Assembly: GCA_035544895.1 (NCBI GenBank)
Contig: DASZZM010000039.1
Location: forward strand, 61,007-125,006
Direction: 5' to 3'
Origin: Thermoanaerobaculia bacterium
GTDB lineage: Bacteria; Acidobacteriota; Thermoanaerobaculia; Multivoradales; UBA5704
DNA length: 64,000 bases
Notes under the pieces: model-generated
What the model was told of the DNA's origin: nothing
Databases searched by the model: none
What the model saw: only the letters and a program-made list of their open reading frames with translations
In this document: in pieces, positions 1 to 27,013 of the stretch
Layout of the letters: each line of letters opens with the position of its first letter
Position numbering within the stretch: the stretch's first letter is position 1
Position numbers and translations under genes: made by a program

Positions 1-1
1 G

Positions 2-1291
2 CGGCTGTACGACGAGCTCGTGGCGCTGCCCGAGGTTGCATGGGGGACGGCGATCGAGCAGGAGCGCTTCGGCTCGCCCGGTCTCGCCGATCTGCTGCTC
101 GCGGCGAGCGCCGAGACGGTGGGGAGCGATGCGCCGCGGGCGGAAAAGCTCGCAGCGCTGGCGCTCGACATCGCCGGCGGCGTCGATGGCGGCCGTTACG
201 GCGGGAGCCTGGTGCGGCGCCTGCACGCGCGCTGCCTCTGCGCTCTGGGCGAGGCGCGGCGCCGGCAGGGTGACAGCGCCGCGGCCGAGCGGGCTTTCGA
301 GGTGGCAGGGCGGCGGCTCGGCGACGAGCCCATGGACATCGAGGAGCGCGCCGTGGCCTGCCGGCTGCTGGCGCGGCTGCGCGCCGACCAGGAGAGACTG
401 GACGAGGCTTTCGGGCTGCTCGAGCGGGCGGCGATACTCTTTGCCGGCCTGGCCCGCTTCCGCGAGCTGGGCGAAGTCCTGGGCGAGCAGGGCCTTCTCT
501 ACCTCTCCCACGGCGAAGCGCATGCGGCGCTGCCGCTTTTGCGCGAGGCGGTCGGACACGTCGAGGCCTCGCCGCGGCCGCGTGCCGCGGTCGAGCTGCG
601 CCTCGGCCTGGCGCGCTGCTACGCCGAGCTGGGCCAGCCGGCCGAGGCGGACGCCGCCCTGGGGGCAGCGCGCCAGCTCTACCACCTCTTCGGCCGCCGC
701 GAGCGGCTGACCTTCCTGCACGCCGAGGCGGGCATCGACGCGCTGTGCCACCGGCTGCTCAAGGCGGTCTCGAAGCTCACGGCCGTGGTGCACCGGCTTG
801 GCGCCGTGGCGCCCTACGACGCGGCGGCGGCGGCGCTCGACCTGGCCGAGATCTACCTCGAGCGCGGCATGCGCGAGCCGCTGCTGCGGCTCGGCGGCGA
901 GCTCGTCCTGCTGCTGGCCTCGTCCGAGCTTCATCCGCGGGCGCGCCTGGTGTTGGCGGTCACCGTGGCGGTGCTCGCCCGCTCACCCGATGTCCTGTCG
1001 AGCGATCTCGTCGAGCGGGCGGCGCGCTACTTCGCGCTGGCCCGCCATGCCCCGGAGCGCGCCTTCGAGCGTCCCGAAGGCAGACCCTTCGAGCTGCCCT
1101 GGGACGAGCTCGACCCGGAGAGCTTGCGGCGTGATCTCTGCGCCGTGGCCGGGCTGCCGGAGGAGATGGCGCGCCTCGGTGCGGCGCAGATCGACCCGGC
1201 GATCCGGGAGCGGCTGGCGGCGACCTGCGAGGAGATCCTGGGAGTGCGCATCGTTTTCGGCGAGCTCGGAGCCAGGGCGGAGCCGAGCTGA
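2..1291 (+). CDS. TPR-like helical repeat protein, 5'-truncated by the window edge
   Basis: Frame is open from base 2 (RLYDELVALPE...). Ala/Leu-rich TPR-like repeats (ACRLLARLRADQERLDEAFGLLERAAILF; LRLGLARCYAELGQPAEADAAL). Similar in style to ORFs 1291 and 25101. Confidence 0.65.
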   Translation, partial: RLYDELVALPEVAWGTAIEQERFGSPGLADLLLAASAETVGSDAPRAEKLAALALDIAGGVDGGRYGGSLVRRLHARCLCALGEARRRQGDSAAAERAFEVAGRRLGDEPMDIEERAVACRLLARLRADQERLDEAFGLLERAAILFAGLARFRELGEVLGEQGLLYLSHGEAHAALPLLREAVGHVEASPRPRAAVELRLGLARCYAELGQPAEADAALGAARQLYHLFGRRERLTFLHAEAGIDALCHRLLKAVSKLTAVVHRLGAVAPYDAAAAALDLAEIYLERGMREPLLRLGGELVLLLASSELHPRARLVLAVTVAVLARSPDVLSSDLVERAARYFALARHAPERAFERPEGRPFELPWDELDPESLRRDLCAVAGLPEEMARLGAAQIDPAIRERLAATCEEILGVRIVFGELGARAEPS

Positions 1292-2577
1292 TGGAGCGCG
1301 GGCACCCGAGCCTCGAGACGCTCGCCAAGTGGCTGGCCGGACGGCTCGAGCACGACGAGGTACGCGGCGAGATCGTGCCGCACCTGGCGGAGTGCTGCGC
1401 GGGCTGCCGCGCCCGCTTCGCGGAGATCGGCCGCCTGCAGGGTGAGGTCGGGCATTGGGATGAGGTGGTCGCGGTGCTCGAAGGGCAGGCGGCGCCGGGT
1501 GTGGTCGCCGAGCTGCTGGCGCTGCCCGCGCCGGCGCGCTGGCGGCGCGCGGCGGAGCTCGCCGATTGGGGGGCGAGCCGCGAGCTGCTGCGCCGCAGCC
1601 GCGAGACGGCGCCCGACGACCCCGCCGCGGCAGCGGACCAGGCGCTGCTCGCCGTGGTGATGAGCGAGCGGCTGAGCAGCGCCTACGATCCGAATTGGGT
1701 GCTCGACCTCCAGGCGCTGGCGCACGCGCAGCTCGCCGAGACGCGGCGCCGCCTGGGCGAGCGGCACGGCGCGGGCGAGGAGCTGCGGCGCGCCGAGGAG
1801 TGCCTGGCGCGCAGCACGACCGGCAGCCCCCTGGTGCTGGCGGATGTGTTGACCGCCCGGGCGGCGCTCTCCCGCGACGAGGGACAGCCCGAAGAGGCCA
1901 GCCAGCTGCTCGGCGAAGCGATCGCCCTCTACCGGGAGGCCGAGGAGCGCGACACCGCCGCGGCGGCCGAGGTTCTGGTCGAGAGCGCGGACCTCCTGGC
2001 CGATCTCGGAGACTTCGAGGGCGCGCTGGCCAAGGTGGTCGAGGCGGAGAGCCTGGCGGGCGCCCTGGCCCCCGCCGCCGCCCCCGCGATGGTGATACGG
2101 ATCGAGCTCAAGGTGCTCGACGTCCTGACCCGGGCCGGGCGCGCCGAGCAAGCCGCGGCCCGGCTGGAGCAGGCGCGGGCGCTGGTGGCGGCACAGGGCG
2201 GGGAGCTGGAGGGCGCGCTGCTCGGGTGGGTCGAGGCGCGGCTGGCGCTGTCCGCGGGCGAGACGGCGGCGGCAGAGTCGGGCCTGCGCCGCGTCTGGCC
2301 GTCGCTCGCGGGGCAGCGGCGGTGCGGCGATGCCGCCCTGGCCGCGCTCGAGCTCGCGCTGCTCTTGCTGCACGACGACGGCGCGCCGGCAGAGGAGAGG
2401 CTCAAGTCCCTGGCGGCCGAGCTGACACAGGCGCTCGCCGCCGGCGCCGCCGAGACGGCGACCTGGGAGGGCCTGGTCGACTTCCTGCGCGCTGCCGCGC
2501 AAGGCCAGGTCAGGCCGGCCCTGGTACGGGCGACGGCGGCAGGCCTGCGCCTGGGGCCGCGGGGCAGGCGGTGGTGA
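1291..2577 (+). CDS. TPR-like protein with N-terminal anti-sigma-type zinc-finger-like motif (zf-HC2-like)
   Basis: N-terminus HPSLETLAKWLAG...VPHLAECCAGCRARF (HxxxCxxC-like), followed by TPR-like helices. ATG overlaps the upstream TGA. Confidence 0.7.
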   Translation: MERGHPSLETLAKWLAGRLEHDEVRGEIVPHLAECCAGCRARFAEIGRLQGEVGHWDEVVAVLEGQAAPGVVAELLALPAPARWRRAAELADWGASRELLRRSRETAPDDPAAAADQALLAVVMSERLSSAYDPNWVLDLQALAHAQLAETRRRLGERHGAGEELRRAEECLARSTTGSPLVLADVLTARAALSRDEGQPEEASQLLGEAIALYREAEERDTAAAAEVLVESADLLADLGDFEGALAKVVEAESLAGALAPAAAPAMVIRIELKVLDVLTRAGRAEQAAARLEQARALVAAQGGELEGALLGWVEARLALSAGETAAAESGLRRVWPSLAGQRRCGDAALAALELALLLLHDDGAPAEERLKSLAAELTQALAAGAAETATWEGLVDFLRAAAQGQVRPALVRATAAGLRLGPRGRRW

Positions 2578-2636
2578 GCGCTGGCGGGCCGGGAGGGACC
2601 GAGAGCGACGGGTCGCGCACCCGAGGAGGATCCCCG

Positions 2637-3071
2637 ATGAGCAGGAAACTGAGTTTCGGCCTCGCCGTGGCGAGTCTTTCGGTTGTCTGGGCCTGTAGCG
2701 GCGGTGGCAGCTCACCGTCCGAGCCGGTGGGCCAGGACAGTATCTCGTTGGTCACGATCACACCGGCCGACGGGACCAAGCTCGCCGCGGGCAGCGTGGT
2801 CACCTTCGCGGCGACGCTTCACTACCAGCTGAGCAGCGCCGCCTCGGGCGAGATCATCGAGGTGATTGAGAACCAGAACGGCGGCATTCTCACGAGCGGT
2901 CCGCAGTTTTCCGTAACGGTCAGCCGCGGGCAGGGCTCGGCACAGCTTGCCGACCGGATCACGATACCTTCGAGCGGCGTTACCCAGATCCTGGTCTTCT
3001 TCCCGCTGACTCCCCAGGGAGCCAATCACACATCGATTGTGGCGACCGCCGCCTATCCGGTGGGGCCTTAG
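2637..3071 (+). CDS. Secreted lipoprotein (144 aa), paralog 1
   Basis: GAGGA SD upstream; signal peptide with lipobox VVWA-C; beta-rich mature part; aligns colinearly with 4374-4808. True start lies inside track ORF 1566..3071. Confidence 0.8.
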   Translation: MSRKLSFGLAVASLSVVWACSGGGSSPSEPVGQDSISLVTITPADGTKLAAGSVVTFAATLHYQLSSAASGEIIEVIENQNGGILTSGPQFSVTVSRGQGSAQLADRITIPSSGVTQILVFFPLTPQGANHTSIVATAAYPVGP

Positions 3072-3117
3072 CCACGATGCGTCGCGCGCGCTTCGTGGAG
3101 CTCGAGCGGGTGGGGCA

Positions 3118-4308
3118 ATGATGACGGTTCCCGGAGCACCAGCGAGCGATCGGCAAGCGCTCGAGGATGTGCTGCCGGCGCTGTGCGAGCAGCTCCGGCC
3201 GCAGCTCCGGCGCATCCTCGCCGCTTTCCAGATCCCGATGGAGGACGCCGAGGACCTGGTGCAAACCACACTGCTGATCGCACTCGCGAAGTGGCCCGGG
3301 ATCTGGAACCCCACGGCATGGCTGCTCGGGACTCTCCAGAAACGCTGCATCATGTACTGGCGCGAGCGCCGCCGGCGTAGCGCCCGCCTGGTGGCCCTCG
3401 AGCCGCTCGAGCACGAGCTCAGCGCGGAGCCGCCCCAGGAAGGCCGAGTCCTCCTCGCCGAGATCGAGACGCTGTGCCGCCGGCTGCCGCAGCCGCAACG
3501 TGCGGTCGTTGTCCTCTACTGCTGCCAGGGCCTGCCCCAGCGGGACGTGGCGCGCGCCACCGGCCTCCGTCCTTCGTCGGTGAGGAAGACCGCGCATCGA
3601 GCAGTCGCCCAGCTGCGCCAGGCCGTAAAGGGTCGCGCGCCCGGTCCTCGCCACCCTTCCCGCCACTGCCTCGGCACCGGCTCGCCGTGGCCGGTAAACG
3701 CTTTCTTGGCCGCCTATGCCAGGTCGACACGGCGGAACTACGGCTGGCAGCTTGGCCGCGCCGCTGCCGCGCTTGGCGACGGCCCACTCGCCGAGCTCAC
3801 TGCCGAAGCGCTGGCCGCCTACCGCGCCGCCGTGATTGCGGACGGCCGCCCGCCCGGCAGTCAAGAGGCAACCCTGGCCCCGCTGCGAACGTTCCTCCTC
3901 TGGGCGGCCGAGCACGGTTGGCACGCTCTCGAGCCGGCAGTGATCCGAGAGGCCCTGCGCTCGCCGCTCCGGCGTCTCCGGATCCCGCGCACCCGCGCCG
4001 CCACCGGCTCGCCGTGGTCGGCGCCGGTGGACGCGTTTCTCGCCGGTCGGGCTGACACGACAAAGTGCCTCTACGCCCGGCAGCTTGGCCAGGCCGCCGC
4101 CAAGCTCGGCGGCAGGCCGCTCGCCGAGCTCACCGCCGAAACCCTGGCCGGCTGCGTCGCCGCGCTGAGGGCAGACGGGCGCGCGCCCATCACTCACGCC
4201 CAGAGGATTGTCACGCTGCGATCGTTCCTGCTGTGGACGGGCGAACGCGGCTGGCACGCTCTCGAGCCGGTGGTGGTTGACGAGGCCCTGCGGCGGCCAG
4301 ACGGATGA
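3118..4308 (+). CDS. ECF sigma-70 factor fused to two tandem integrase core-binding (SAM-like) domains
   Basis: Region 2 (EDAEDLVQTTLL...NPTAWLLGTLQKRCIMYWRERRRR) and region 4 (RLPQPQRAVVVL..QGLPQRDVARATGLRPSSVRKTAHRA), then two repeats resembling Phage_int_SAM (STRRNY..QL..A..L...PLAELTAE.LA.....L..DG..P......L..LR.FL.W....G). Confidence 0.75.
   Translation: MMTVPGAPASDRQALEDVLPALCEQLRPQLRRILAAFQIPMEDAEDLVQTTLLIALAKWPGIWNPTAWLLGTLQKRCIMYWRERRRRSARLVALEPLEHELSAEPPQEGRVLLAEIETLCRRLPQPQRAVVVLYCCQGLPQRDVARATGLRPSSVRKTAHRAVAQLRQAVKGRAPGPRHPSRHCLGTGSPWPVNAFLAAYARSTRRNYGWQLGRAAAALGDGPLAELTAEALAAYRAAVIADGRPPGSQEATLAPLRTFLLWAAEHGWHALEPAVIREALRSPLRRLRIPRTRAATGSPWSAPVDAFLAGRADTTKCLYARQLGQAAAKLGGRPLAELTAETLAGCVAALRADGRAPITHAQRIVTLRSFLLWTGERGWHALEPVVVDEALRRPDG
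3675..4295 (+). repeat. Intragenic tandem duplication (~100 aa units) in the sigma factor C-terminal extension
   Basis: CACCGGCTCGCCGTGG at 3675 and 4002; both units read TGSPW..V.AFLA...PLAELTAE.LA...LR.FLLW..E.GWHALEP.V..EALR. Confidence 0.9.
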
Positions 4309-4373
4309 AAGCAGCTACCCGGCCGGAGAAGAAGTGGCGCCCGGCGGGTCATGCGGCGCACAGGAGAATCCCA

Positions 4374-4808
4374 ATGAGCAGAAAACTGGTCTTCGGCCTT
4401 GCCGTCGTGCTCCTGTCGGTTGTCTATGCCTGCAGCGGCGGTGGCAGCTCGCCGTCCGAGCCCGTGAGCCAGGACAGCCTCGCGTTGGTCACGATCGCGC
4501 CGGCCGCCGGGACCAGGCTCGCCGCGGGCAGCGCGGTCACCTTCGCCGCCACGCTCCACTATCAGTTGGGCAGTGCTGCCTCCGGCACCATCGCCGAAGT
4601 CATCGAGAACCAGACCGGCGGCCTGCTCGGCAGCGGCCCGCAGGTGAGCGTCACGGTCAACCGCGGGCAGGGCTCGGTGCAGCTCGCCGACCGCATCACC
4701 GTGCCGCTCTCGGGGGTCACCCAGGTTGAGGTCTTTTTCCCGTTGACTCCCGCGGGCGTGACCACGACCTCGATCGTGGCGACCGCCACCTATCCGGTAG
4801 GGCCTTAG
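4374..4808 (+). CDS. Secreted lipoprotein (144 aa), paralog 2
   Basis: AGGAG SD; lipobox VVYA-C; same length as and colinear with 2637-3071 (MSRKL.FGLAV...CSGGGSSPSEPV...YPVGP). Confidence 0.8.
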   Translation: MSRKLVFGLAVVLLSVVYACSGGGSSPSEPVSQDSLALVTIAPAAGTRLAAGSAVTFAATLHYQLGSAASGTIAEVIENQTGGLLGSGPQVSVTVNRGQGSVQLADRITVPLSGVTQVEVFFPLTPAGVTTTSIVATATYPVGP

Positions 4809-5207
4809 CAGCCATGCCGCTTCGGCCGGGTAGCGCAAGGGTGGGCGGTCGCCGAGGGCTGGCGAGCGGCAGCGGGCCTGGACGAACTCGCAGGGCGCCT
4901 GAGCGTCGCGGCCGGGCGCGACGGCCTTTACGTGGCCGCCTTCTCCGGCGAGGGCGGTCTGTGGCGGCTGCCCTGGGAGGCGCTCGAAGCCGCGGAGTGG
5001 CAGCGGGTCGGCGAGGCGAGGCTGGATGGGGAGCCACTGCCGGTCTTGAATTGATGCCGGTCGACCGCGCCGCGGCTGCTGCAGCGCGCATCCTGATGGG
5101 GTTTCGTGCGGGAGAGGAGCCGCAAGCGCCACGAAACCGCACCGTACGCACGCTGAATAGCGTGGGGGGCGGCGTAAGTCGGTCGGCGGCGGTTCGCCGA
5201 CGCGCCG

Positions 5208-6155
5208 TTAGCTCACCGGCCGCCGCCCGCCATCAATGGGAGTTTGAACGTAATGGCTCTGCGACCCCATGGTGAGGGCGCCGGCTTCAAAATCCAAGTA
5301 GAGCAGGTCTTCGAACGGCCCGAGGTCGGCGCCTGGAGACGCGACCGTGATCCAGTCGGTGATCGCCGCGAGCACCTCGGCGCCGAGCGCCGTGTTGGTG
5401 GTGAACAGGAGCTCCTTGCCGAGGACTTCACCCGACCGGCTCATCTTGAGCTGGACCGCCAGGACACCCGAGAGTTTGCCGAGCCGTCCTTCGGGCACCT
5501 TGAGGCCGAAGAGCCGTCCGGCTGCGTCCTTCTTCGACCGCGCCTGGCGGAAATGGAAGCTCCTGGCCGTATCATCCTCGCCACCGAACATCAGCTGGTG
5601 GTCGGCGCACTGTTGGAACTTCGTCGCATAGTCGGGATCGGAGGCGAACCGTAGTTGTCGGATCGGGACTCGATCTTGCTTCGGCTCGACGAGCTCGCTA
5701 TAGGACCACAGATCTTGGTCAGGCTTGAAATCCTGCTGCAACTGGGTGCACGACTCCAGGGAAAGAGCAGCCGCGCCATCGCTGGTCCTTGTCCGGCTGC
5801 CTGTTGCCTTCGCCGGCGCGACGCCGCCACGAGCTGCAATCTCCGGCAGACTAAGCTTCGCGCACTGATAGTCGGGCCAAGGCCCACAATCGTAGAACGC
5901 GCAGTTGTTCCGATTAACGGGCCTGCCCGCCGTTCTGCAGCAGCACGAAGCCTCCAGGGCTGACCCGCAGAAGCTGTCCCGGCAAAAGGGCGAGCCCGTG
6001 GCGCAAAGCGGTGTGCACTTTGTGGTGTCCGCCACGCACGGGCAGGTGCACTTCGCTGAGCAGTCGTCCTGAGCGACCGCCGGGACCGTGAAGGCCAAGA
6101 CTCCCACCAGCACGGCAAGAGCGACAGTAGCTGGCTCTCGGTTCGTGGAGGACAT
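5208..6155 (-). CDS. Secreted protein with 14-cysteine N-terminal domain and possible TonB_C-like C-terminal domain
   Basis: GGAG upstream; signal peptide ending AVA-Q; 14 Cys in about 67 residues. C-terminal GVLAVQLKMSRSGEV...ALGAEVLAAITDW resembles the TonB C-terminal pattern (weak, by eye). Confidence 0.6.
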   Translation of the reverse strand: MSSTNREPATVALAVLVGVLAFTVPAVAQDDCSAKCTCPCVADTTKCTPLCATGSPFCRDSFCGSALEASCCCRTAGRPVNRNNCAFYDCGPWPDYQCAKLSLPEIAARGGVAPAKATGSRTRTSDGAAALSLESCTQLQQDFKPDQDLWSYSELVEPKQDRVPIRQLRFASDPDYATKFQQCADHQLMFGGEDDTARSFHFRQARSKKDAAGRLFGLKVPEGRLGKLSGVLAVQLKMSRSGEVLGKELLFTTNTALGAEVLAAITDWITVASPGADLGPFEDLLYLDFEAGALTMGSQSHYVQTPIDGGRRPVS

Positions 6156-6435
6156 GTGATCCTCTCCCTTTAAGAAGACTCCTATTCGAGCATATAGCGT
6201 CTCCTGGAGAGGCTGTCAAGGCAGGCGAGTCCGGCGGATGTCCTTTCAGCGGCCGAGGACCTTCTCGCAGGCAGGGTCTCCTGCGGTTTGGCACTGAACG
6301 GCATTTGCAACCTCCGACGACCCGAACCACGGCGTGCTCCTCGGCCGCCGGGTCGCTCATCGCACGAGAGACCTTTCGATGCTCGCCAGGTACGCACTCC
6401 CACCGCGGCAACGCCCTTGACACCCGTCATGTCAT

Positions 6436-6459
6436 GTCTGATAAACGACGTTATCGGAC
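6436..6459. promoter_or_regulatory. Palindromic tyrosine-recombinase-type binding/crossover site
   Basis: GTCTGATAA-ACGACG-TTATCGGAC: 9-bp inverted arms (1 mismatch) with a 6-bp spacer, 16 bp upstream of the integrase-remnant ATG. Confidence 0.6.
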
Positions 6460-6475
6460 CCGAAAAGGAGGCGAG

Positions 6476-6790
6476 ATGCCCCGCCACTCCAAGCCCGCTC
6501 GAACCCCCCAAACCGCATTAGCGCCCCTTGGCGGGCCGATCGGCCGTCCAGGCGGCCTCGTGCTCCCCTCCCTCATCGCCCAGGCCGGCGAGCGGGCGGC
6601 GCGCCGCTTCCTCGACTACTTTACGGCCGAGATCCGAAACCCCCATACTCGCGGCGCCTACGCCGGTGCGGCGCGGCGGTTTCTCGCCTGGTGCGACGGC
6701 CGAGGCCTCGCCCTCTCCGAGCTCCAGCCGTTTGTGGTGGCGGCCTGCGTCGAGGAGCGCGGCCGCGCGCTCGCCGCGCCCTCGGTCAAG
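6476..6790 (+). pseudogene. Truncated tyrosine recombinase/integrase (N-terminal core-binding part only)
   Basis: AAGGAGG SD and ATG at 6476. LPSLIAQAGERAARRFLDYFTAEIRNPHTRGAYAGAARRFLAWC...APSVK is a typical plasmid-type integrase N-terminus. Similarity stops near APSVK; no catalytic R-H-R-Y domain. Confidence 0.75.
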
Positions 6791-6875
6791 GGCGCTACCC
6801 TTCACTGGGGGCGCCTTCGTGAGCTTCCCGGGCCTTCGATCCACGGTGCGGACCCACGACAGGCGTCCAGTCCGG

Positions 6876-7934
6876 CTACCGCAGGTCGGCGCCGACCGCT
6901 TCCCAGATCGACTCGAAGCCGTCGCGGGCCATCAGCTCGAGGAGCTCGAGGTTGATGCGGCGCGCCAGCGAGGGGCCTTCGTAGACCAGGGCGGTGTAGA
7001 CCTGGACCAGGGAGGCGCCGGCGCGGATGCGGCGGTAGGCCTCCTGGCCGGAGTCGATGCCGCCGGCGCTGATCAGGACGGAGCGGCCGAAGACGCGCCG
7101 GGCCACCGCGGCGAGGACGCGGCGACTCTGATCGCGCAGCACCTGGCCGGAGAGGCCGCCGAAGGGCTGGCTGCCGGGGAGGAGAGAGTAGTCGGTCGTG
7201 GTGTTGGTCGCCACGATGCCGGCGGCGCCGGCATCGACCGCCGCGGCGGCCAGGCTCGCGGCCTCGCCGGGCTCGAGATCCGGCGCGAGCTTGACCAGCA
7301 CCGGGCGGCCGGTGAGGCGGGCGGCCAGGGCCAGGAGGGCGCGCAGGAAGGGCTCGTTCTGCAGATCGCGGAGGCCGGGGGTGTTGGGCGAGGACAGGTT
7401 GACGACCAGGTAGTCGGCGAGATCGCCCAGGGCGCCGAGCAAGGCCTCGTAGTCGGCCAGCGCCTCTTCGGCGGGCGTCGCCCGGCCCTTTCCCAGGTTC
7501 ACCCCCACGGGCAGCGGAAACGGCCGCGCGGCGGCGAGGCGGCGGCGCATCGCCGCCAGGCCAGAGTTGTTGAAGCCGAGGGCGTTCTGCAGGCTGCGCG
7601 CGGCGGGGAAGCGGAAGACGCGCGGCCGCGGGTTGCCGGGCTGCGGCAGCGGGGTCACCGTGCCGACCTCGACGAAGCCGAAGCCGAGCATGGGCAGGGC
7701 GCGGACGGCCGCGGCGTCCTTGTCGAAGCCGGCGGCGAGCCCGACCGGGTTGGGGAAACGGCGGCCGAACAGGGTCTGGGCGAGCGCCTCGGCGCTGATC
7801 CGGTAGCGGGCCTCCAGGCGCCGGGCCAGCGGCGGCAGGGCCGCGGCCGCGCGCAGGGCGAAGAGGCCCAGGCGGTGGCTCGTCTCGGGATCGAGCCGGA
7901 AGAGCAGGGGGCGGAGGGCGGGATAGGAGAGCAC
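6876..7934 (-). CDS. pyrD: Quinone-dependent dihydroorotate dehydrogenase (class 2)
   Basis: NPVGLAAGFDK, EVGTVTPLPQPGNPRPRVFR, VNLSSPNTPGLR, KLAPDL, NTT, GGLSG, VQVYTALVYEGP motifs. Confidence 0.95.
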   Translation of the reverse strand: MLSYPALRPLLFRLDPETSHRLGLFALRAAAALPPLARRLEARYRISAEALAQTLFGRRFPNPVGLAAGFDKDAAAVRALPMLGFGFVEVGTVTPLPQPGNPRPRVFRFPAARSLQNALGFNNSGLAAMRRRLAAARPFPLPVGVNLGKGRATPAEEALADYEALLGALGDLADYLVVNLSSPNTPGLRDLQNEPFLRALLALAARLTGRPVLVKLAPDLEPGEAASLAAAAVDAGAAGIVATNTTTDYSLLPGSQPFGGLSGQVLRDQSRRVLAAVARRVFGRSVLISAGGIDSGQEAYRRIRAGASLVQVYTALVYEGPSLARRINLELLELMARDGFESIWEAVGADLR

Positions 7935-8040
7935 GGAGCGCGGCTAGTATTCCATCGCTTCACCCTGTGGTATAGTGCTTTTTCGGCAAACCGCTGGCAT
8001 CACGCAACTTGCTGCCCGGTTCTAGCCTGAGGACGCGGAC

Positions 8041-8337
8041 GTGGAAACCATGCCAGGGGCCACCACCGAAGTGGAGATCTACGGTGTGGTCTACCATGTG
8101 CGCGGCAGCGATGACCAGGAGTACCTTCAGGGACTGGCCGATCTCGTGGACCGCCGGATGCGCGAGGTCGCCCAGCACGCGAGCACGGCCGACACGACCC
8201 GCATCGCGATCCTGGCGGCGCTCAATCTGGCGGATGAACTGTCCCGCACTCAGAAGCGGCAGGAAGGGGAACGGGTCGAGATCAAGGAGAAGGTGGCGAA
8301 GCTGACCGAGGAATTGACGGCAGCCCTGAACGGTTGA
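8041..8337 (+). CDS. zapA: Cell division protein ZapA (start may be ATG 8050)
   Basis: VEIYG..Y.VRG....YL..LA..VD..M; RIAILAALNLADEL; canonical position upstream of 6S RNA and rny. Confidence 0.9.
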   Translation: METMPGATTEVEIYGVVYHVRGSDDQEYLQGLADLVDRRMREVAQHASTADTTRIAILAALNLADELSRTQKRQEGERVEIKEKVAKLTEELTAALNG

Positions 8338-8387
8338 CAGGGAACGGCGGCACCGCCAGCCACACGAGATATATGAAAACTGCTCTT

Positions 8388-8583
8388 GCACCCCCTGCGT
8401 GGTTCGTGATGGTTACCACGATTGTAGAACCAACATACATCTCTCGGGAGTCTTTTACCCGCGCGGCCCGTGCCAGCCTCCATCCCACCCGGATGACGAG
8501 GACGCTAACGGCTCGTGGAGCGGACACCCACCTGGTGCGTTTCAGGTTCTAAACGCCGGCCCACACGGCCACGCGGGGGATGC
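8388..8583 (+). ncRNA. ssrS: 6S RNA (SsrS)
   Basis: About 195 nt between zapA and rny (conserved synteny). 5' GCACCCCCTGCGTGGTTCGTG can pair with 3' CACGGCCACGCGGGGGATGC as a closing stem. Boundaries approximate. Confidence 0.75.
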
Positions 8584-8658
8584 ATTTGATCCTCTCTTCC
8601 TGAGAGGCCTCTCCGATCCGACCGGTGCCCTCCTGTCGAAGGAAGCAGGGGGTACGCG

Positions 8659-10227
8659 GTGAATGATCAAGTCACACTGTTTGCAGCCGCCGCTCTGCTG
8701 GTCGGGGCCGGCGTCTTGCTCGTCTGGTTCGTGCTGCTGCGGCGGGCGGGAAAGCGCATGGCCGCGCAGGCCAAGCGGCAGGCCGGCAAGACCATCGAAG
8801 ACGCCGAGCGGCAGGCCGAGACGATCCGCCGCGAGGCCGAGGTCGCGGCGCGCGAGAAGCTTCTGCAGGCGCGCAGCGAGCACGAGGCGGCGCTGCGCAA
8901 GCGGCGGGTCGAGCTCGAGGCCCTGGAACGGCGGCTCACCCAGAAGGAGGACAACCTCGACAAGCGCGCCGACGAGGTGGCGCGCCGCGAGCGCGACCTG
9001 ACGCAGACCGACCGCGAGCTCACCGGCCGCGAAAAGGCCCTGGCCAGGCAAGAGACCGAGGTCGAGACAATCGCCGCGGAGGGGCGCGCCCGGCTCGAGC
9101 AGATCGCCGGATTGACCGCGCAGCAGGCGCGCGAAGAGCTGCTGCACGAGATGGAGGACGGAGCGCGAATCGAAGCCGCGCATATCGTCAAGCGCATCGA
9201 GGACGAAGCGCGCGAGCAGGGCGGCAAGCAAGCCCAGCGCATCATCGGGATGGCGGTGCAGCGCTCCGCCTCGGACTACGTGTCGGAGACCACCGTCTCG
9301 GTGGTGATGCTGCCGAGCGACGAGATGAAGGGGCGCATCATCGGCCGCGAAGGACGCAACATCCGCGCCCTCGAGATGGCGACCGGGGTCGATCTCATCG
9401 TCGACGATACGCCGGAGGCGGTGATCCTCTCCGGGTTCGATCCATACCGCCGCGAAGTCGCCAGGGTAGCGCTCGAGCGCCTGATCGGCGACGGCCGCAT
9501 CCATCCGGCCCGCATCGAAGAGGTGGTCGAGAAGGTCAAGGCCGAGCTCGACCAGAAGATCGTGCAGGAGGGGGAGTCGGCCCTCCTCGAGCTGGCGATC
9601 CCCGGCATGCACCCCGAGCTCATCCGGCTCCTGGGGCGCTTGCGCTACCGCACCTCCTACGGCCAGAACGTGCTGCAGCACAGCAAGGAGGTCGCCTTCC
9701 TGGCCGGCACCATGGCCGCGGAGCTCAGGGCCAACATCCAGGTCGCCCGCCGCGCCGGCCTGGTGCACGACATCGGCAAGGCCATCGACCGCGAGATGGA
9801 CGGCACCCATCTGCAAATCGGCATCGACCTGCTGCGCAAGTACGGAGAGAACGAAGACGTGGTGCACGCGATGGCCTGCCACCATGGCGACTACGACCCG
9901 CAGACGGTCGAGGCGGTTCTGGTGACCGCCGCCGACGCGCTCTCCGCGGCCCGCCCCGGGGCCCGCCGCGAGATCCTCGAGACCTATGTCAAGCGCCTGG
10001 AGAAGCTCGAAGAGATCGCCTCCGGCTTCAAGGGGGTGCAGAAGACCTTCGCCATCCAGGCCGGCCGCGAGATCCGCATCATCGTCGACAGCGGCAAGAT
10101 CAGCGACGAGCAGTCGCTCTGGCTCTCCAAAGACATCGCGCGCAAGATCGAGGCGGAGCTGACTTATCCCGGGCAGATCAAGGTGACGGTCATCCGCGAG
10201 ACCCGCTCCATCGAGTACGCGCGGTGA
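8659..10227 (+). CDS. rny: Ribonuclease Y
   Basis: N-terminal TM helix, coiled coil, KH ([17 protein letters not shown]), HD domain (GLVHDIGKA), C-terminal [12 protein letters not shown]. Confidence 0.97.
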
Positions 10228-11021
10228 AGCTGCTCTTCGTCGGCGACGTCGTCGGCAAACCCGGACGCAAGGCGCTGCTCGGATTGCTGCCGCGCCTGGT
10301 GGACCGCCACCTGGCCGACTACGTGGTGGTCAACGTCGAGAACTCGGCGGGAGGCTTCGGCGTCACGCCCGAGGTGCTCGACGAGCTGGCGGAGCTGCCC
10401 ATCGATTGCTTTACGACCGGCAATCATGTCTGGGACAAGAAGGAAGTCCTCGAGCTGCTCGAGCGCGAGCCGCGGTTGCTGCGCCCCGCCAACTACCCGG
10501 AGGGCAACCCCGGGCGGGGCCTGCACCTCGGCGAGACGGCGGCGGGGGTGCCGGTGGCGACGCTGAACCTGGAGGGGAGGGTGTTCATGCACAACCTCGA
10601 CTCGCCCTTCCTGGTCGCCGACCGGCTGCTGGCCTCTCTGCGCCCCGACGTCAAAGTGGTGCTGATCGATTTTCACGCCGAGACGACGAGCGAGAAGCAG
10701 GCCCTGGCCTTCTATCTCGACGGGCAGGTGAGCGCGGTGATCGGCACCCACACCCACGTGCCGACCGCCGACGAGCGTGTGCTGCCCCGGGGGACCGCGC
10801 TGTTGACCGACGCGGGCATGACCGGCCCTTACGAATCGATCATCGGCATGCGCGCCGACAAGGTTCTCAAGCGCTTCCTGCTGCAGACCCCCGCCAGCTT
10901 CGAGGTCGCCAAGCGCGACGTCCGCCTCGCCGCCGCCGTCGTCGACGTCGACGAGGAAACCGGCAAGGCGCGCGGCATCGAGCGCCTGCTGGTGCCGTTC
11001 GGGCACGACGAGACGGACTGA
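10224..11021 (+). CDS. ymdB: YmdB/TIGR00282 metallophosphoesterase
   Basis: [53 protein letters not shown]; overlaps the rny stop. Confidence 0.93.
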
Positions 11022-11031
11022 CGAAGCGCGC

Positions 11032-11595
11032 CTACTTGCCGCTTGCCTCGGGCCAGGCGACGAAATAGCCGTCGGACCACACGAGGTCGTGGTCGTGATC
11101 GGTGGGGGAGAAGGCGCCGACTTCATAGCTGTCGCCAGAGAAACTGCCGTCGGCGCCGGCGCTGCGCACCGCCATGATCTGTGTGGCTTCGAGGTTCCGG
11201 GTGTTCAGGCGGTACTCGTACGGGTGGCCCCACGGATCGTTCCGCGGCAGCGACCGGAGGTACTTGGGCACGAGCAGGGTCGCGAGATCGTCGTACGAGA
11301 TGACCGGTATCGGGCCAAGATCGACCCTGGCCGCGGCCTCGCCGGCGTGCTCGGCGTGGCCTTCACCTTTGCCCTTCGCGGATTCCTTCTGGTCCGTGTA
11401 CCACGAGAACATGGCGGTGCCGGCGTTGCGGATGTCGCCGATTGCCTTCTTGGTCTCGGGCGATCCGGTTGGCGGCTTGGCAGTCCCAGCCGCGCCAGCC
11501 GGGGTCGCCAGAGCCACCACGAGGACAATCAGCAATCCCAGGGGTGGCGCCCACCAGGCGGCGGCCAGACGGGCGTTCTTCTGTACTCTGCGCAT
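11032..11595 (-). CDS. Secreted protein with GspG/pseudopilin-like C-terminal domain
   Basis: Hydrophobic signal ending PAGA; LVPKYLRSLPRNDPWGHPYEY...VRSAGADG resembles the T2SS protein G domain; no GFTLIE prepilin motif. Confidence 0.6.
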   Translation of the reverse strand: MRRVQKNARLAAAWWAPPLGLLIVLVVALATPAGAAGTAKPPTGSPETKKAIGDIRNAGTAMFSWYTDQKESAKGKGEGHAEHAGEAAARVDLGPIPVISYDDLATLLVPKYLRSLPRNDPWGHPYEYRLNTRNLEATQIMAVRSAGADGSFSGDSYEVGAFSPTDHDHDLVWSDGYFVAWPEASGK

Positions 11596-11702
11596 CGCTT
11601 TCTCCTTATCGAGCCGCGGGACGAAGAGGTCACGCGTGGGCGATACTGTATCACTGATGTGATACAGAAGTACAGTCTGTGCCCCGCGCCTGGGTGAGAG
11701 GG

Positions 11703-12533
11703 TCAGGAAGCAGCCGAAGAGAACGGCCTGCCCCTCTCGGCGGCCCCGTCGGCGGCCCCGTCCGGCACGTCCGCCTGCCGCGCCACGGCGCCTGGCGAGC
11801 TCCAGACCTCGATCTCCGTGGACTGGCGGCGGTCGATCCAGCGGGATTGCATCCAGCGCACCGCGAGCAGGTCGGCGGTGGCGCGCCAGACGCGGTTGCG
11901 GATGTTGTACTTGGGAGCGCCGTGCAGACGCGGCCGGTGATGGACGGAGACTTCGGCGACGCGCGCCCCTTCCATGCGCAGCAGCGTGGGGAGGAAGCGG
12001 TGCATGCCCGTCCACACCGGGATGCGCGCCAGGTACTCGCGGCGGTAGGCCTTCAGCGAGCAGCCCACGTCCGTCACCGCCTCGTGCGTCACGCGGTTGC
12101 GCACTCCGTTGGCGATGCGCGATGAGATCCGCCGCAGCCAGCTGTCCCGGCGCCGCGAGCGCACGCCGCACACCACGTCATGGGTGGCCAGGTGGGCGAG
12201 CAGCCGCGGGATGTCCGCCGGGTCGTTCTGCAAGTCGGCGTCGAGGGTGACCACCGCCGCGCCGCGGGCGTGCCGGAAGCCGGCGTCGAGCGCCGCCGAC
12301 TGCCCGCTGTTGCGGGCCTGCCGCACCACCCGGATCGCCGGGTCGTGCCGCGCCAGGCCGGCCAGGACTTCCAGGCTGCCGTCGCTGCTGCCGTCGTCGA
12401 CGAAGATCACCTCATAGGCGCGCCCGAGCCCTCCCATCGCGGCGCGGATCTCCGCGGCCAGGACCGGCAGGCTCTCCTCTTCGTTGTAGACCGGGATCAC
12501 CAGCGACACTTCCGGCTGCGGCGATCCGCCCAT
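11703..12533 (-). CDS. Glycosyltransferase family 2 (polyprenol-phosphate glycosyltransferase, ArnC/Dpm1-like)
   Basis: SLVIPVYNEEE, FVDDGSSD, NSGQSAAL..GF, TLDADLQNDPADIP, HRFLP motifs. Confidence 0.9.
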   Translation of the reverse strand: MGGSPQPEVSLVIPVYNEEESLPVLAAEIRAAMGGLGRAYEVIFVDDGSSDGSLEVLAGLARHDPAIRVVRQARNSGQSAALDAGFRHARGAAVVTLDADLQNDPADIPRLLAHLATHDVVCGVRSRRRDSWLRRISSRIANGVRNRVTHEAVTDVGCSLKAYRREYLARIPVWTGMHRFLPTLLRMEGARVAEVSVHHRPRLHGAPKYNIRNRVWRATADLLAVRWMQSRWIDRRQSTEIEVWSSPGAVARQADVPDGAADGAAERGRPFSSAAS

Positions 12534-24663: not shown

Positions 24664-25029
24664 ATGAGCAGGCAAGGACTTCACCGCGTTTTACCAGGGC
24701 TGGCCATCGCGGCCGCCCTGAACCTGACGGCTCCCGGCCGGGCCGAGGCGGCCTGGGCTTTCCGAGCCAATTCCGCGGCAGGCTGGAGCGACGTCTGGAG
24801 CGCCGCCTGGAGCAAGGGGGCGAGCTGGTGGGACGATCTGTGGGCCCGGGTTGGGCCCGGGCCGTCCCGCGGCGGCTCACGGCCGAGCACGGAAGCTCGA
24901 TTCAGCGGCGTCTCGAGGAAAGAGGGCCAGCACGATGGCGACTCTTCGTGGCACCGCGACGATCGGGGTCCCGGTTCAGAAGGAGCCTGCAGCGTCAACC
25001 CGAACGGCGTCTGCAGCCCTGAGCACTGA
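24664..25029 (+). CDS. Small secreted protein/propeptide (121 aa) ending in C-SVNPNGV-C
   Basis: Strong SD; signal peptide ending AEA-A; Trp-rich segment, Gly/Ser/Arg linker, C-terminal GACSVNPNGVCSPEH. Confidence 0.7.
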   Translation: MSRQGLHRVLPGLAIAAALNLTAPGRAEAAWAFRANSAAGWSDVWSAAWSKGASWWDDLWARVGPGPSRGGSRPSTEARFSGVSRKEGQHDGDSSWHRDDRGPGSEGACSVNPNGVCSPEH

Positions 25030-25100: not shown

Positions 25101-26516
25101 TTGAGCGAACATCCCACCGCCGAGGAGCTCGCGCGCTTCATCGCCGAGGAGCTTCCTCCGCCGCGGACTCGGGCCGTGGTCGAGCACCTGGTCCGCGGCT
25201 GCCGGCGCTGCCGCACGGCGCTTGCCGGGCGGACGGGACTCGCTTCCTTCGCGGCTCCGGCGGCGGCTGCCGAGCGGCCGGCGGCCGGTGGACGGGATCG
25301 CCGGCGCGGCAAGCGGAGCGGAACGGGCGCCGGCTCCGGCTCCTGCAATGCCGAGTACGACCGCGCGATCGCCAGCGCTTTCGCCACCGCTCGCCGGCAC
25401 AGCCGCCGCCTGCGCCTCGACAAGGCGAGAGCGCAGCAGGTCCGCGACCTCTTGCAGGCCCGGGGCATCGCCGGCTTCCTCGGCCTGCCCAGGCACCTGC
25501 GCGGCGTACCCGCCTGTCAAGGGTGTCTCGATCTCGCCTGGTCCCTGCGCCAGGAGGATCCGCGGCAGATGGTGCAGCTGGCGCAGCTGGCGACCCTGGC
25601 CGCGCGCCGGCTGCCGCCGGCTGGCCACGGCGATGCCCAGAGCCTCGACTTGCGCTGCCGAGCCGAGATGGAGCTGGCCAACGCCTATCGGGTGGTCAGC
25701 CGGTTTCGCGAAGCGGGTGCCGCCTTGAGTGTCGCGGCCGACCTCTTTCGCCGCGGCAGCCGAGATCCTTTCCTTGCCGCGCGGCTCCTCGAGATCAAGG
25801 CCAACATCTGCGGCGACCGCTGCAACTTCCTGGAAGCCTTCAGAGCTCTCAACGGCGCGGCGCGGATCTATCGCCGCTACGGCCAACCTCACCTCGCCGG
25901 CCGCATGCTGATCGAGAAAGGCATGTATAGCGGCCACGCGGGCGAGCCGGAGAAGGCGATCGCCTTGCTGCGCCAAGGCCTCGAGATGATCGATCCGGCG
26001 ATCGATCCGCAACTAGCCCTGGCGGCGGTTCACAACGTGGCGGTGTGTATGGTGGATCGCGGCGACTTCCGGCCGGCACGGCTGCTGCTCTGGCGTCATC
26101 TGCAGCTCTTCGAGGAGCATGCCGGCCTGACGCATCGGCTGAGGCTGGCGTGGCTGAAAGGCCGGATTCACGAGGGACTTGGAGAGTACGTCCGCGCCGA
26201 GCGCGCCTTCGTCCAGACACGCGAGGACATGTCCGCCGCCGGCGACCCGTACGCGGCGGCGACCGCCACTCTCGATCTCGCCGCACTGACGATGCGGCGG
26301 GGAGACGCCGAGCGCGCGCACGCCCTCGCCCGCGAAGCGGCGCAGGTCTACTTCACCCTGGACCTCGGGCGCGAGACCACGGCCGCCGTGATGCTCCTCG
26401 AGGCGACTCTCGAGTTTCAGAAGAGTACGACGGCAGGGCTGTTCAAACAGGTTGCCGATTTCATGCGCCAGGCCGCGAGCGATAAGTCGCTGAGTTTCAG
26501 GAATTATTTCTCGTAA
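25101..26516 (+). CDS. TPR-like protein with N-terminal zf-HC2-like motif
   Basis: AAGGAGG SD and TTG start; HPTAEELARF...VVEHLVRGCRRCR; AEMELANAYRV...A.AAL; multiple TPR-like helix pairs. Confidence 0.75.
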   Translation: MSEHPTAEELARFIAEELPPPRTRAVVEHLVRGCRRCRTALAGRTGLASFAAPAAAAERPAAGGRDRRRGKRSGTGAGSGSCNAEYDRAIASAFATARRHSRRLRLDKARAQQVRDLLQARGIAGFLGLPRHLRGVPACQGCLDLAWSLRQEDPRQMVQLAQLATLAARRLPPAGHGDAQSLDLRCRAEMELANAYRVVSRFREAGAALSVAADLFRRGSRDPFLAARLLEIKANICGDRCNFLEAFRALNGAARIYRRYGQPHLAGRMLIEKGMYSGHAGEPEKAIALLRQGLEMIDPAIDPQLALAAVHNVAVCMVDRGDFRPARLLLWRHLQLFEEHAGLTHRLRLAWLKGRIHEGLGEYVRAERAFVQTREDMSAAGDPYAAATATLDLAALTMRRGDAERAHALAREAAQVYFTLDLGRETTAAVMLLEATLEFQKSTTAGLFKQVADFMRQAASDKSLSFRNYFS

Positions 26517-26587: not shown

Positions 26588-27013
26588 TCAGTCGTCGTCG
26601 AGGGGCGGGTCGGGGTCGAGGCCGGCGATGCGGCGCAGCGCGTCCTGCACCATTTCGTCGATGTCGGGCGGGCCCCAGGGCTCGGTCGTAGCGGCGTCCC
26701 GGGCTGCGGGAGATGGGTGGCGGCCGTGCAGGACCTCGAGGAGGCTCAGCATGCGCTCCTCTTCGGTATCGAGCCCGCGCTCGTGCGGAAACATCACCGC
26801 CAGGAAGCGGGCGGGGGAGAGCTCGAGGGCGCCGAGGATGCTCAGCAGCTGACTGACCTTGAGGTCGCTCGTGCCGCGCATCAGGCGCGTCATGGTGCCC
26901 GCGCTCCAGCCCAGCTGGCGCTCGAAGTCCCGGTAGCTGCGCTGCGACAACCGGATCGCGTCCCTGAGCATGGCAAGCAGGAGCTCGGCAGCGTCGCCGG
27001 ACTTAGCCGCCAT
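26588..27013 (-). CDS. XRE/Cro-family helix-turn-helix regulator
   Basis: LRDAIRLSQRSYRDFERQLGWSAGTMTRLMRGTSDLKVSQLLSILGALELSP pattern; convergent on the TPR gene. Confidence 0.8.
   Translation of the reverse strand: MAAKSGDAAELLLAMLRDAIRLSQRSYRDFERQLGWSAGTMTRLMRGTSDLKVSQLLSILGALELSPARFLAVMFPHERGLDTEEERMLSLLEVLHGRHPSPAARDAATTEPWGPPDIDEMVQDALRRIAGLDPDPPLDDD

Follow-up and report, generated by a model that had tools for sequence, protein, structure and literature searches.

Introduction

Sigma factors of the extracytoplasmic function (ECF) type constitute bacteria's third major mode of signal transduction and serve as orthogonal parts in synthetic biology. Each new mode of control found among them has been informative. 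How such a factor might be controlled when its own polypeptide continues into domains of the kind found in tyrosine recombinases, and when its gene lies downstream of genes for zinc-finger (ZnF) and tetratricopeptide repeat (TPR) proteins, is the question raised by bases 2-4808 of the stretch of DNA presented above. This stretch (hereafter the window) comprises 64,000 nucleotides (nt) of a Thermoanaerobaculia genome with about 73% guanine plus cytosine (GC), and the locus studied consists of five genes, here called A to E. Its most noteworthy feature is the pair of tandem recombinase core-binding (CB) domains in which the sigma factor encoded by gene D ends. In this work, which is entirely computational, we describe the architecture and relatives of this sigma factor, its linkage to TPR genes across genomes and the properties of the ZnF-TPR proteins A and B, and we weigh the tentative proposal that these proteins are anti-sigma-like partners of the sigma factor against the alternatives.

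A sequence-only reading of the window had placed five co-oriented, tightly packed genes at this locus, and the list of open reading frames (ORFs) bears it out: all five run in the same orientation at exactly the positions given there, and their codon-position GC is that of real genes (0.80-0.93 at third positions, GC3, and 0.50-0.57 at second positions, GC2). Gene B starts on the stop codon of gene A, an overlap of 1 nt, and the other intergenic gaps measure 46-65 nt. A scan of window positions 1-6400 for sigma-70 promoters and terminators gave nothing beyond shuffled expectation and no convincing separator between genes A-E, and co-transcription of the five genes is plausible. A, B and D have no predicted transmembrane (TM) segment, and the gaps are too small to hide a gene for a membrane anti-sigma factor, in agreement with the earlier view that the ZnF-TPR protein is soluble and that the locus encodes no membrane-spanning anti-sigma factor.

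Scanning genome and metagenome collections with an alignment of the sigma factor yielded 152 further loci, and all ORFs of the fetched loci were searched with custom hidden Markov models (HMMs) of the sigma core, the CB repeat, the ZnF, the TPR and the lipoprotein. Throughout the text comparison loci are designated by L numbers (e.g., L160), and the coordinates of the features are collected in Table 1.

A sigma factor that ends in recombinase core-binding domains

Residues ~9-170 of the gene D product form a standard ECF core. Both Sigma70_r2 and Sigma70_r4_2 score above their Pfam cut-offs, and the TIGR02937 sigma70-ECF model matches with 58.7 bits (cut-off 42.9). PF04542 spans residues 23-87 and PF08281 residues 115-166, with a disordered linker (90-105) between them, which is the organization of an ECF factor with sigma2 and sigma4 only. 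The best Foldseek matches of the core are SigH, SigL, RpoE and SigW; the nearest solved ECF factor, 5uxx_A, is found at E=3e-6 only, and none of the NCBIfam subfamily or equivalog models reaches its cut-off for gene D.

The sequence-only reading had called D an ECF sigma factor correctly and had missed the C-terminal extension. Residues ~187-394 consist of two tandem Phage_int_SAM_1-like domains of ~100 amino acids (aa) each, which at the DNA level form a direct repeat, 333 nt apart and 75-81% identical. Repeat 1 is modeled as a four/five-helix unit with a predicted local distance difference test score (pLDDT) of 80-92, and Foldseek matches repeat 2 to the N-terminal domain of an integrase (3nrw; TM score 0.70, root-mean-square deviation 2.5 Å) and to lambda Int (1z1b), with Brujita Int (5vfz) among the further Foldseek matches of the protein. 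A core-binding, SAM-like domain of the kind found at the N-terminus of tyrosine recombinases is thus indicated by PF02899, by Foldseek and by the recombinase homologues described below. Among the NCBIfam models XerC matches the extension weakly, and a PDB search with the extension as a single sequence gave no matches. In the AlphaFold model of the whole protein, four confident domains are separated by disordered linkers (mean pLDDT 77.6; predicted template modeling score, pTM, 0.33). Since the PF00589 catalytic domain has no match in gene D and the protein ends 2 residues past repeat 2, gene D does not encode a recombinase; its CB domains would presumably bind DNA.

The relatives of the extension fall into two kinds. 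A phmmer search with residues 175-396 of gene D against 1.84 billion representative proteins gave only 106 matches at E<=1e-3, about 24 of which are sigma fusions with one to four repeats (clusters at 50% identity, from many samples); of the non-sigma matches, 42 were tested and 34 carry the PF00589 catalytic domain. To the core-binding domains of genuine tyrosine recombinases the extension aligns nearly without gaps at 35-45% identity, the repeats at about 40%, and the mean net charge is +3.4 for the sigma-fused repeats and +3.3 for the non-sigma matches (mostly integrase CB domains). In a neighbor-joining (NJ) tree 38 of the 41 sigma-fused repeats form one clade, which suggests a single capture event followed by tandem amplification. 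The two parts also occur separately: in L089, L024 and L020 a distinct gene for a one-repeat CB protein comes right after the sigma gene, the two joined by a GTGA stop/start overlap, and L002 and L012 encode stand-alone repeat proteins. The occurrence of the same parts in fused and in split form, a classic type of evidence, indicates that the sigma factor and the CB domains work together.

These data also bear on the suspicion that the long ORF of gene D is an artefact, be it an assembly chimera or a sigma gene fused in frame by chance to what decay has left of an integrase gene's 5′ end. The locus is indel-rich and a decayed integrase fragment lies nearby (6305-6955), as such a suspicion would have it. 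That fragment, however, does not match the HMM of the CB repeat, GC3 stays at 0.83 through the repeat region, and the repeats are confidently folded in the model and form their own clade in the tree. The recurrence of the sigma+CB architecture, with differing repeat numbers, in so many clusters and samples excludes an artefactual fusion, and we regard an artefact of any kind as extremely improbable.

Full-text literature searches returned no description of a sigma factor combined with recombinase CB domains, and the 2021 ECF census names in its main text SnoaL-like, TPR, Cys-rich, DUF1835 and transmembrane extensions without mention of integrase or SAM-like ones (PMC7826278). A sigma factor ending in two recombinase DNA-binding domains is apparently an undescribed combination.

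Linkage of the sigma clade to TPR genes

The sigma+CB clade is small, and wherever its contigs are named they are labeled Thermoanaerobaculia or Acidobacteriota only. Across the sigma clade a TPR-family gene lies at most 2.2 kb from the sigma gene in 13 of 15 distinct informative loci (those whose flanks are usable), mostly directly upstream and co-oriented, and several loci hold two to five TPR paralogues of which at least one has a zinc finger. The linkage includes sigma relatives that lack the CB repeats (L022/L093, L026 and L094), in which a TPR-family gene without a zinc finger follows immediately downstream. The background density of the TPR family looks low, since the remaining 59 kb of the window hold a single additional copy. 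The same scans also brought in about 125 ordinary ECF loci, which yielded only two weak TPR matches; as a control these loci are weak, being mostly from other phyla. Taken together, the clade-wide linkage is good evidence that the sigma core and the TPR family are functionally linked. The notion that the number of TPR genes tracks the number of CB repeats was rejected, no correlation being apparent on inspection of the loci.

In some loci a short sigma-like ORF with a weak match to the sigma-core HMM separates the TPR gene from the full sigma+CB gene: a 152-aa ORF in L007 (5471-5926; the same gene in L009 and L088) and an 87-aa ORF in L017 (995-1255). These may be truncated second sigma factors or sigma-like partners.

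The zinc-finger/TPR proteins and their wider family

The TPR assignment of genes A and B, made already from the sequence alone, is sound, because a profile of the A/B family (14 members) matches the TPRs of kinesin light chain in the PDB at E=7e-12 (RapH at 1e-4). Gene A matches the custom TPR HMM at E=4e-94. Single-sequence Pfam TPR_12 matches (27 and 21 bits), that of gene B included, stay under the 30.1-bit cut-off. Gene A had been taken for a plain TPR gene, a view that its orthologues correct. About 104 of its codons are lost beyond the window edge, and what remains is 93% identical to L003 8400-10001 (residues 105-533) and to L160 7057-8655. The full-length proteins of these loci (533 aa in L003, 532 aa in L160) open with MDHPDLHVLAKL...FDHLFTCTGC (MDHPDL start), a canonical Hx3Cx2C motif. 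Since the orthologues carry an N-terminal zinc finger, the locus opens with two tandem ZnF-TPR genes.

Gene B has orthologues in L003, L086 and L160 that are 84-93% identical. In alignments of 14 and of 15 diverse gene B relatives the sole invariant N-terminal positions are H5, H31, C36 and C39, with the spacing H-x25-H-x4-C-x2-C, one residue longer than the HxxxCxxC of zinc-binding anti-sigma (ZAS) domains. The sequence-only reading had seen HxxxCxxC in gene B, which reads HLAECCAGC at this place; the orthologues in L003 and L160 read HLAERCAGC, so that the conserved first Cys of gene B is the +5 one and the spacing conserved in the family is Hx4Cx2C. This spacing is found in gene B and in 13 of the 15 aligned family members, and the canonical Hx3Cx2C in the A orthologues and L013.

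In the AlphaFold model of gene B(1-105) (pLDDT 79.6, pTM 0.63), with helices at 8-15, 21-32 and 37-53, H5 lies before helix 1, H31 ends helix 2 and C36/C39 open helix 3. The CHCC zinc center of DdvA (C6, H28, C32, C35) is set in a three-helix bundle (PMC11506125), and the gene B ligands 5/31/36/39 occupy the same places relative to the predicted helices. The N-terminal domain of A and B may bind zinc. The ZAS proteins collected in this analysis for comparison include a 92-aa protein of L002 (12934-13212) with the canonical ZAS-type motif HLILCNSC, whose gene and the sigma/TPR cluster of that locus are a few kb apart.

The A/B-type TPR domain is also found behind XRE-type HTH_31 helix-turn-helix (HTH) domains (L003 4225-7830, L160 2898-6439 and L002 3-1319). 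These HTH-TPR paralogues are ~30% identical to A/B over the TPR part, and those of L003 and L160 lie just upstream of A; by synteny with L160, two HTH-TPR genes should lie just left of the first base of the window. As the same TPR domain is shared by HTH_31 and ZnF proteins, the family swaps a DNA-binding head for a zinc-finger head. The window holds a third ZnF-TPR gene at 25101-26516 (+; 471 aa), with the N-terminus EHPTAEEL...HLVRGCRRC and no sigma gene nearby. A gene for a small secreted protein (24664-25029), which has a stretch rich in Trp and ends in GACSVNPNGVCSPEH, lies 72 nt upstream of it and a convergent gene for a small XRE-like HTH protein follows (26588-27013, -), a three-gene pattern that recurs in L004.

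Small secreted proteins of this type have in common a signal peptide, an amphipathic stretch of the form W-x-x-L/W and from one to three loops of the pattern C-x-[VIL]-[DN]-P-x-G-x-C, and match no Pfam or NCBIfam family. Their genes either immediately precede ZnF-TPR genes or lie between HTH-TPR ones, and the products could be signaling peptides or regulated products. This pattern of adjacency, which is the whole basis of the idea, hints at peptide sensing by the TPR family.

Local synteny and the lipoprotein genes

The true syntenic locus of the window is L160, which has the order pheST ... A, B, lipoprotein, F, pyrD, zapA, rny and aligns to window positions 1-3117 at 94% and to 6872-12000 at 97%. 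After B it has a single C-type lipoprotein gene (95% to gene C), and D and E are absent. L003 aligns to window positions 1-2463 at 93% and has after B a single E-type lipoprotein gene (94% to gene E), with C and D absent. In L086 the orthologues of A and B are 86-88% identical at the protein level and an unrelated gene follows B. The C-type copy survives in L160 and the E-type copy in L003, which is most simply explained by an ancestor with the gene order of the window (A-B-C-D-E) and two independent deletions; insertion is a possible alternative. Downstream of E, window positions 4872-5086 are 90% identical (blastn) to L003 13139-13355, which lies inside an intact L003 gene (12101-13321, 406 aa). 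This deletion remnant and the differences between the loci mark the segment downstream of B as an insertion/deletion (indel) hot spot. The convergent intergenic region that includes it (4809-5207) is unusually long (400 nt).

No repeats were found around the indel region and no tRNA genes anywhere in the window, so there is no attachment (att) site evidence for site-specific insertion. A search of IMG/VR viral contigs found no relatives of the cassette, which is apparently not phage-borne, and no PADLOC defence model matches.

Genes C and E, which flank gene D and encode putative lipoproteins, are paralogues, 80% identical, of a tiny family (three clusters); no Pfam or NCBIfam family matches gene C. 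A hydrophobic leader and an invariant Cys, followed by SGGGSSPS, are present in both proteins as well as in the three homologues. The leader of C and E ends in ...VV[WY]AC-SGGGSS (...SVVWAC-SGGGSS in C), and the W/Y at the -2 position in C, E and P0124 is atypical for a lipobox. Gene E is 81% identical to HVT17219.1, an accession directly before that of a sigma homologue, HVT17220.1. The record of each names one contig, 27,361 nt long, and they are very probably on the same contig; their adjacency is read from the consecutive accessions, and a second genome probably carries a lipoprotein-sigma pair.

How might the sigma factor be controlled?

We tentatively propose, with confidence that comes close to even and falls short of it, that the ZnF-TPR proteins are cytoplasmic and most likely anti-sigma-like partners of the sigma clade, that the CB domains are an added module and that the lipoproteins are likely targets. 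On this proposal the ZnF-TPR proteins would hold the sigma factor through their zinc-finger helices, as zinc anti-sigma domains do, and the binding of a ligand to the TPR array would release it. The CB-like domains would add to the sigma factor a DNA-binding or partner-docking module beyond sigma4, and lipoproteins C and E would be probable members of the regulon. A and B would be a translationally coupled pair, and the whole region a lineage-specific regulatory cassette.

A number of results weigh against this proposal, some of which concern the zinc finger itself. The sequence-only reading had named a mismatch between the Cys motif and zf-HC2 as a refutation of its proposal, and formally such a mismatch is what is seen: Pfam zf-HC2 has no match in gene B at E<=1 and matches only one of 15 family N-termini, at E=0.61; the family profile reaches a ZAS protein in the PDB, RslA, only at a non-significant E=0.51; and an hhalign comparison with a few genuine ZAS proteins encoded beside sigma genes reaches a probability of 27% in a 20-column alignment at the motif, the same ZAS profile recovering RsiW at 6e-4 as a positive control. 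Neither Foldseek with the model of gene B(1-105) nor a single-sequence search with the gene B N-terminus finds a match in the PDB. The gene B domain is therefore best described as ZAS-like in ligand pattern and predicted topology and not as a demonstrable member of the ZAS family. Others concern the genomic neighborhood. The A-B pair is kept at 86-94% identity in L160, L003 and L086, all without a sigma gene, which makes A-B, and not A-B-sigma, the stable unit here. L012 and L092 are sigma-clade loci without a TPR gene within 6-10 kb, and the distant B homologues of L004, L005 and window 25101-26516 have no sigma gene within 8 kb; the orphan ZnF-TPR genes (L004 8001, L004 13809, L005 8001 and window 25101-26516) are each directly preceded by a small secreted-protein gene. 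No lipoprotein homologues were found in the other sigma-clade loci fetched, and a search for a bipartite ECF-type promoter motif upstream of 30 sigma genes recovered GC-rich background alone and defined no motif or regulon. As to the sigma factor, the pTM of 0.33 means that the model holds no confident contact between a CB repeat and the sigma core, and a C-terminal extension in the described ECF groups usually takes the place of an anti-sigma factor (PMC7826278).

Much of this would be expected if A-B and the sigma-lipoprotein cassette were independent modules that are accidental neighbors at an indel hot spot, the sigma factor being controlled by its own CB extension without any anti-sigma factor and A-B forming a self-contained sensor pair of the cytoplasm that goes with the upstream HTH-TPR and secreted-peptide genes. 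Such independence would also account for structural variants that differ exactly at the sigma/lipoprotein segment, for the apparent adjacency of lipoprotein and sigma genes in another metagenome-assembled genome, for orphan ZnF-TPR genes that pair with small secreted-peptide genes and not with sigma genes, and for L087, the closest sigma homologue with context (64% identity), whose short contig has no TPR gene. It is nevertheless a doubtful explanation, if one to be taken seriously, in that TPR adjacency in all but two of the informative loci, repeat-less relatives included, is hard to reconcile with the lack of a functional link, the more so as the background of the TPR family looks low. The linkage could in turn reflect a role that is not inhibitory: the ZnF-TPR proteins may act with the sigma factor as scaffolds or co-activators that dock on the CB repeats or the sigma core, or as substrates or adaptors in proteolytic control. 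This would suit a linkage that holds with no detectable homology to anti-sigma domains, and the presence of several TPR paralogues, with and without a zinc finger, around one sigma gene in L002, L020, L024 and L089. We consider it improbable, given that the repeat-less sigma relatives are still TPR-linked, so that the link is independent of the CB repeats, that the numbers of CB repeats and TPR genes do not track each other and that the HHCC ligand placement best fits a zinc anti-sigma domain.

The anti-sigma reading of A and B, which the sequence-only reading had put forward, is on the available sequences plausible and partly supported. The strong linkage to the sigma clade, the four ligands and the predicted solubility favor it; homology to ZAS domains is not demonstrated by zf-HC2 or by fold, and local synteny counsels caution. 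Conservation of the neighborhood, the check suggested at the time, is seen for the clade-wide sigma-TPR linkage and not for the cluster as such, whose sigma gene is absent from L160, L003 and L086. The lipoproteins, then counted as part of the module, are not conserved in the neighborhood of the family and occur with the sigma gene in only one other genome.

A bolder version of the anti-sigma proposal, which we regard as a long shot, is a new ECF circuit in which domesticated CB domains, fused to the sigma factor or co-translated with it, extend promoter recognition to upstream sites and soluble ZnF-TPR anti-sigma factors sense, through their TPR arrays, the secreted Trp-rich, Cys-loop peptides. 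If true, it would constitute a peptide-based, quorum-sensing-like sigma input in a diderm phylum that is not known to have one.

Neighboring genes and feature coordinates

Beyond the convergent intergenic region lies gene F (window 5208-6155, -), whose product is a secreted protein of 315 aa, very rich in Cys in its N-terminal part and without a family match. It is only 58% identical to its syntenic counterpart in L160, as against 93-97% for the flanking genes, and is either evolving fast or has been replaced. The adjoining segment (6156-6875) is low in GC (0.62), and ORF 6305-6955 is a decayed N-terminal fragment of a tyrosine recombinase, with a Phage_int_SAM_1 score of 16.5 bits only, a GC3 of 0.70 and an overlap with the 3′ end of pyrD. 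L160 has a gene for a 725-aa secreted protein at this position instead, and the segment has the look of a scar that an earlier mobile-element event left behind.

Table 1. Coordinates of the features of the locus and of related genes (window positions unless a comparison locus is named).
Feature	Position	Strand	Basis or remark
Gene A, ZnF-TPR paralogue, 5′-truncated by the window edge	2..1291	+	open frame from base 2
Gene B, soluble ZnF-TPR protein, 428 aa	1291..2577	+	orthologues in L003, L086, L160
Gene B N-terminal helical zinc-finger-like domain	1291..1470	+	four invariant ligands, AlphaFold helices
Gene B ligand codons	H5 1303-1305, H31 1381-1383, C36 1396-1398, C39 1405-1407	+	
Gene B TPR array, residues ~82-425	1534..2565	+	custom TPR HMM, E=1e-113
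Gene C, putative lipoprotein, 144 aa, C-type copy	2637..3071	+	leader and Cys
Gene D, ECF-type sigma factor with C-terminal extension, 396 aa	3118..4308	+	Pfam, TIGR02937, AlphaFold, Foldseek
Gene D sigma2, residues 9-90	3142..3387	+	PF04542, 4.7e-9; helix pLDDT ~90
Gene D sigma4, residues 106-170	3433..3627	+	PF08281, 3e-10
Gene D core-binding (SAM-like) repeat 1, residues 187-283	3676..3966	+	custom repeat HMM, 1e-41
Gene D core-binding (SAM-like) repeat 2, residues 296-394	4003..4299	+	PF02899, 24.7 bits (cut-off 22.3)
Gene E, putative lipoprotein, 144 aa, E-type copy	4374..4808	+	homologues in L003 and HVT17219.1
Non-coding remnant, 3′ end of a 406-aa secreted-protein gene	4872..5086	+	blastn against L003
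Small secreted-protein genes	L160 4545-4931; L003 5909-6271; L004 7493-7873, 15291-15632; L005 7595-7894		

Comparison with known systems

The sigma+CB fusion and the ZnF-TPR family are both restricted to a class of Acidobacteriota that is little studied and for the most part uncultured, and their present value is that of a well-defined, directly testable hypothesis derived from computation. In the fusion, the tandem DNA-binding domains of recombinase type would represent a kind of ECF extension that is new, and perhaps the first that contacts DNA and not the sigma core. With the ZnF-TPR family the anti-sigma repertoire would gain a class that is soluble and senses through TPRs, for which the 2021 census considers that unrecognised soluble variants probably exist (PMC7826278).

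The N-terminal domain of A and B resembles the ZAS domains (RslA with HHCC, ChrR, RsiW, RsrA and DdvA; PMC11506125) in being, by prediction, helical and ~55-60 aa long, with one ligand before helix 1, a His ending helix 2 and a CxxC opening helix 3. ZAS domains are encoded beside an ECF sigma gene, as are members of the A/B family, many others of which adjoin no sigma gene; the family differs further in its spacing, mostly Hx4Cx2C, and in that no matches to zf-HC2 or to the sequences and folds of solved ZAS domains were detected. DdvA of Myxococcus xanthus unites a zinc anti-sigma-like N-terminus and a large TPR-containing sensor in one polypeptide, as A and B do. Whereas DdvA has a TM helix, a periplasmic TPR part and a CHAT protease and acts through proteolytic release, A and B have neither a TM segment nor CHAT, and their TPR part is predicted to be cytoplasmic.

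RRNPP receptors (Rap, NprR, PlcR, AimR) are cytoplasmic TPR receptors for secreted peptides, most of them with an HTH domain. The A/B family recalls them in that its TPR domain also occurs in XRE-type HTH fusions, that small secreted-peptide genes adjoin many of its members and that RapH is a weak profile match (1e-4). A and B themselves have no HTH domain and share with RRNPP receptors a generic TPR similarity only, which falls short of membership, and genes for peptide processing or import were not seen; they also come from a member of the Acidobacteriota. Peptide sensing by A and B is pure conjecture.

With the core-binding domain of the tyrosine recombinases (Phage_int_SAM_1; XerC/D, lambda Int) the repeats of gene D share sequence identity, the helical fold and a net positive charge. 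They differ from it in being arranged in tandem, in lacking a catalytic domain and in being attached to a sigma factor or encoded just after one. The closest parallel on the sigma side is given by the ECF groups with C-terminal extensions (SnoaL-like in ECF41, ECF56, ECF294 and ECF295, TPR in ECF42, Cys-rich in ECF238, ECF287 and ECF288, and DUF1835 in ECF264; PMC7826278), which like gene D combine a sigma2+sigma4 core with a fused domain of more than 50 aa and in which, as for sigma+CB, the fusion defines a coherent, taxon-restricted clade. The clade of gene D is set apart from them by the nature of its extension, one to four tandem recombinase CB domains, and, whereas the extension-bearing groups are usually partnerless, by keeping a conserved family of candidate partner genes.

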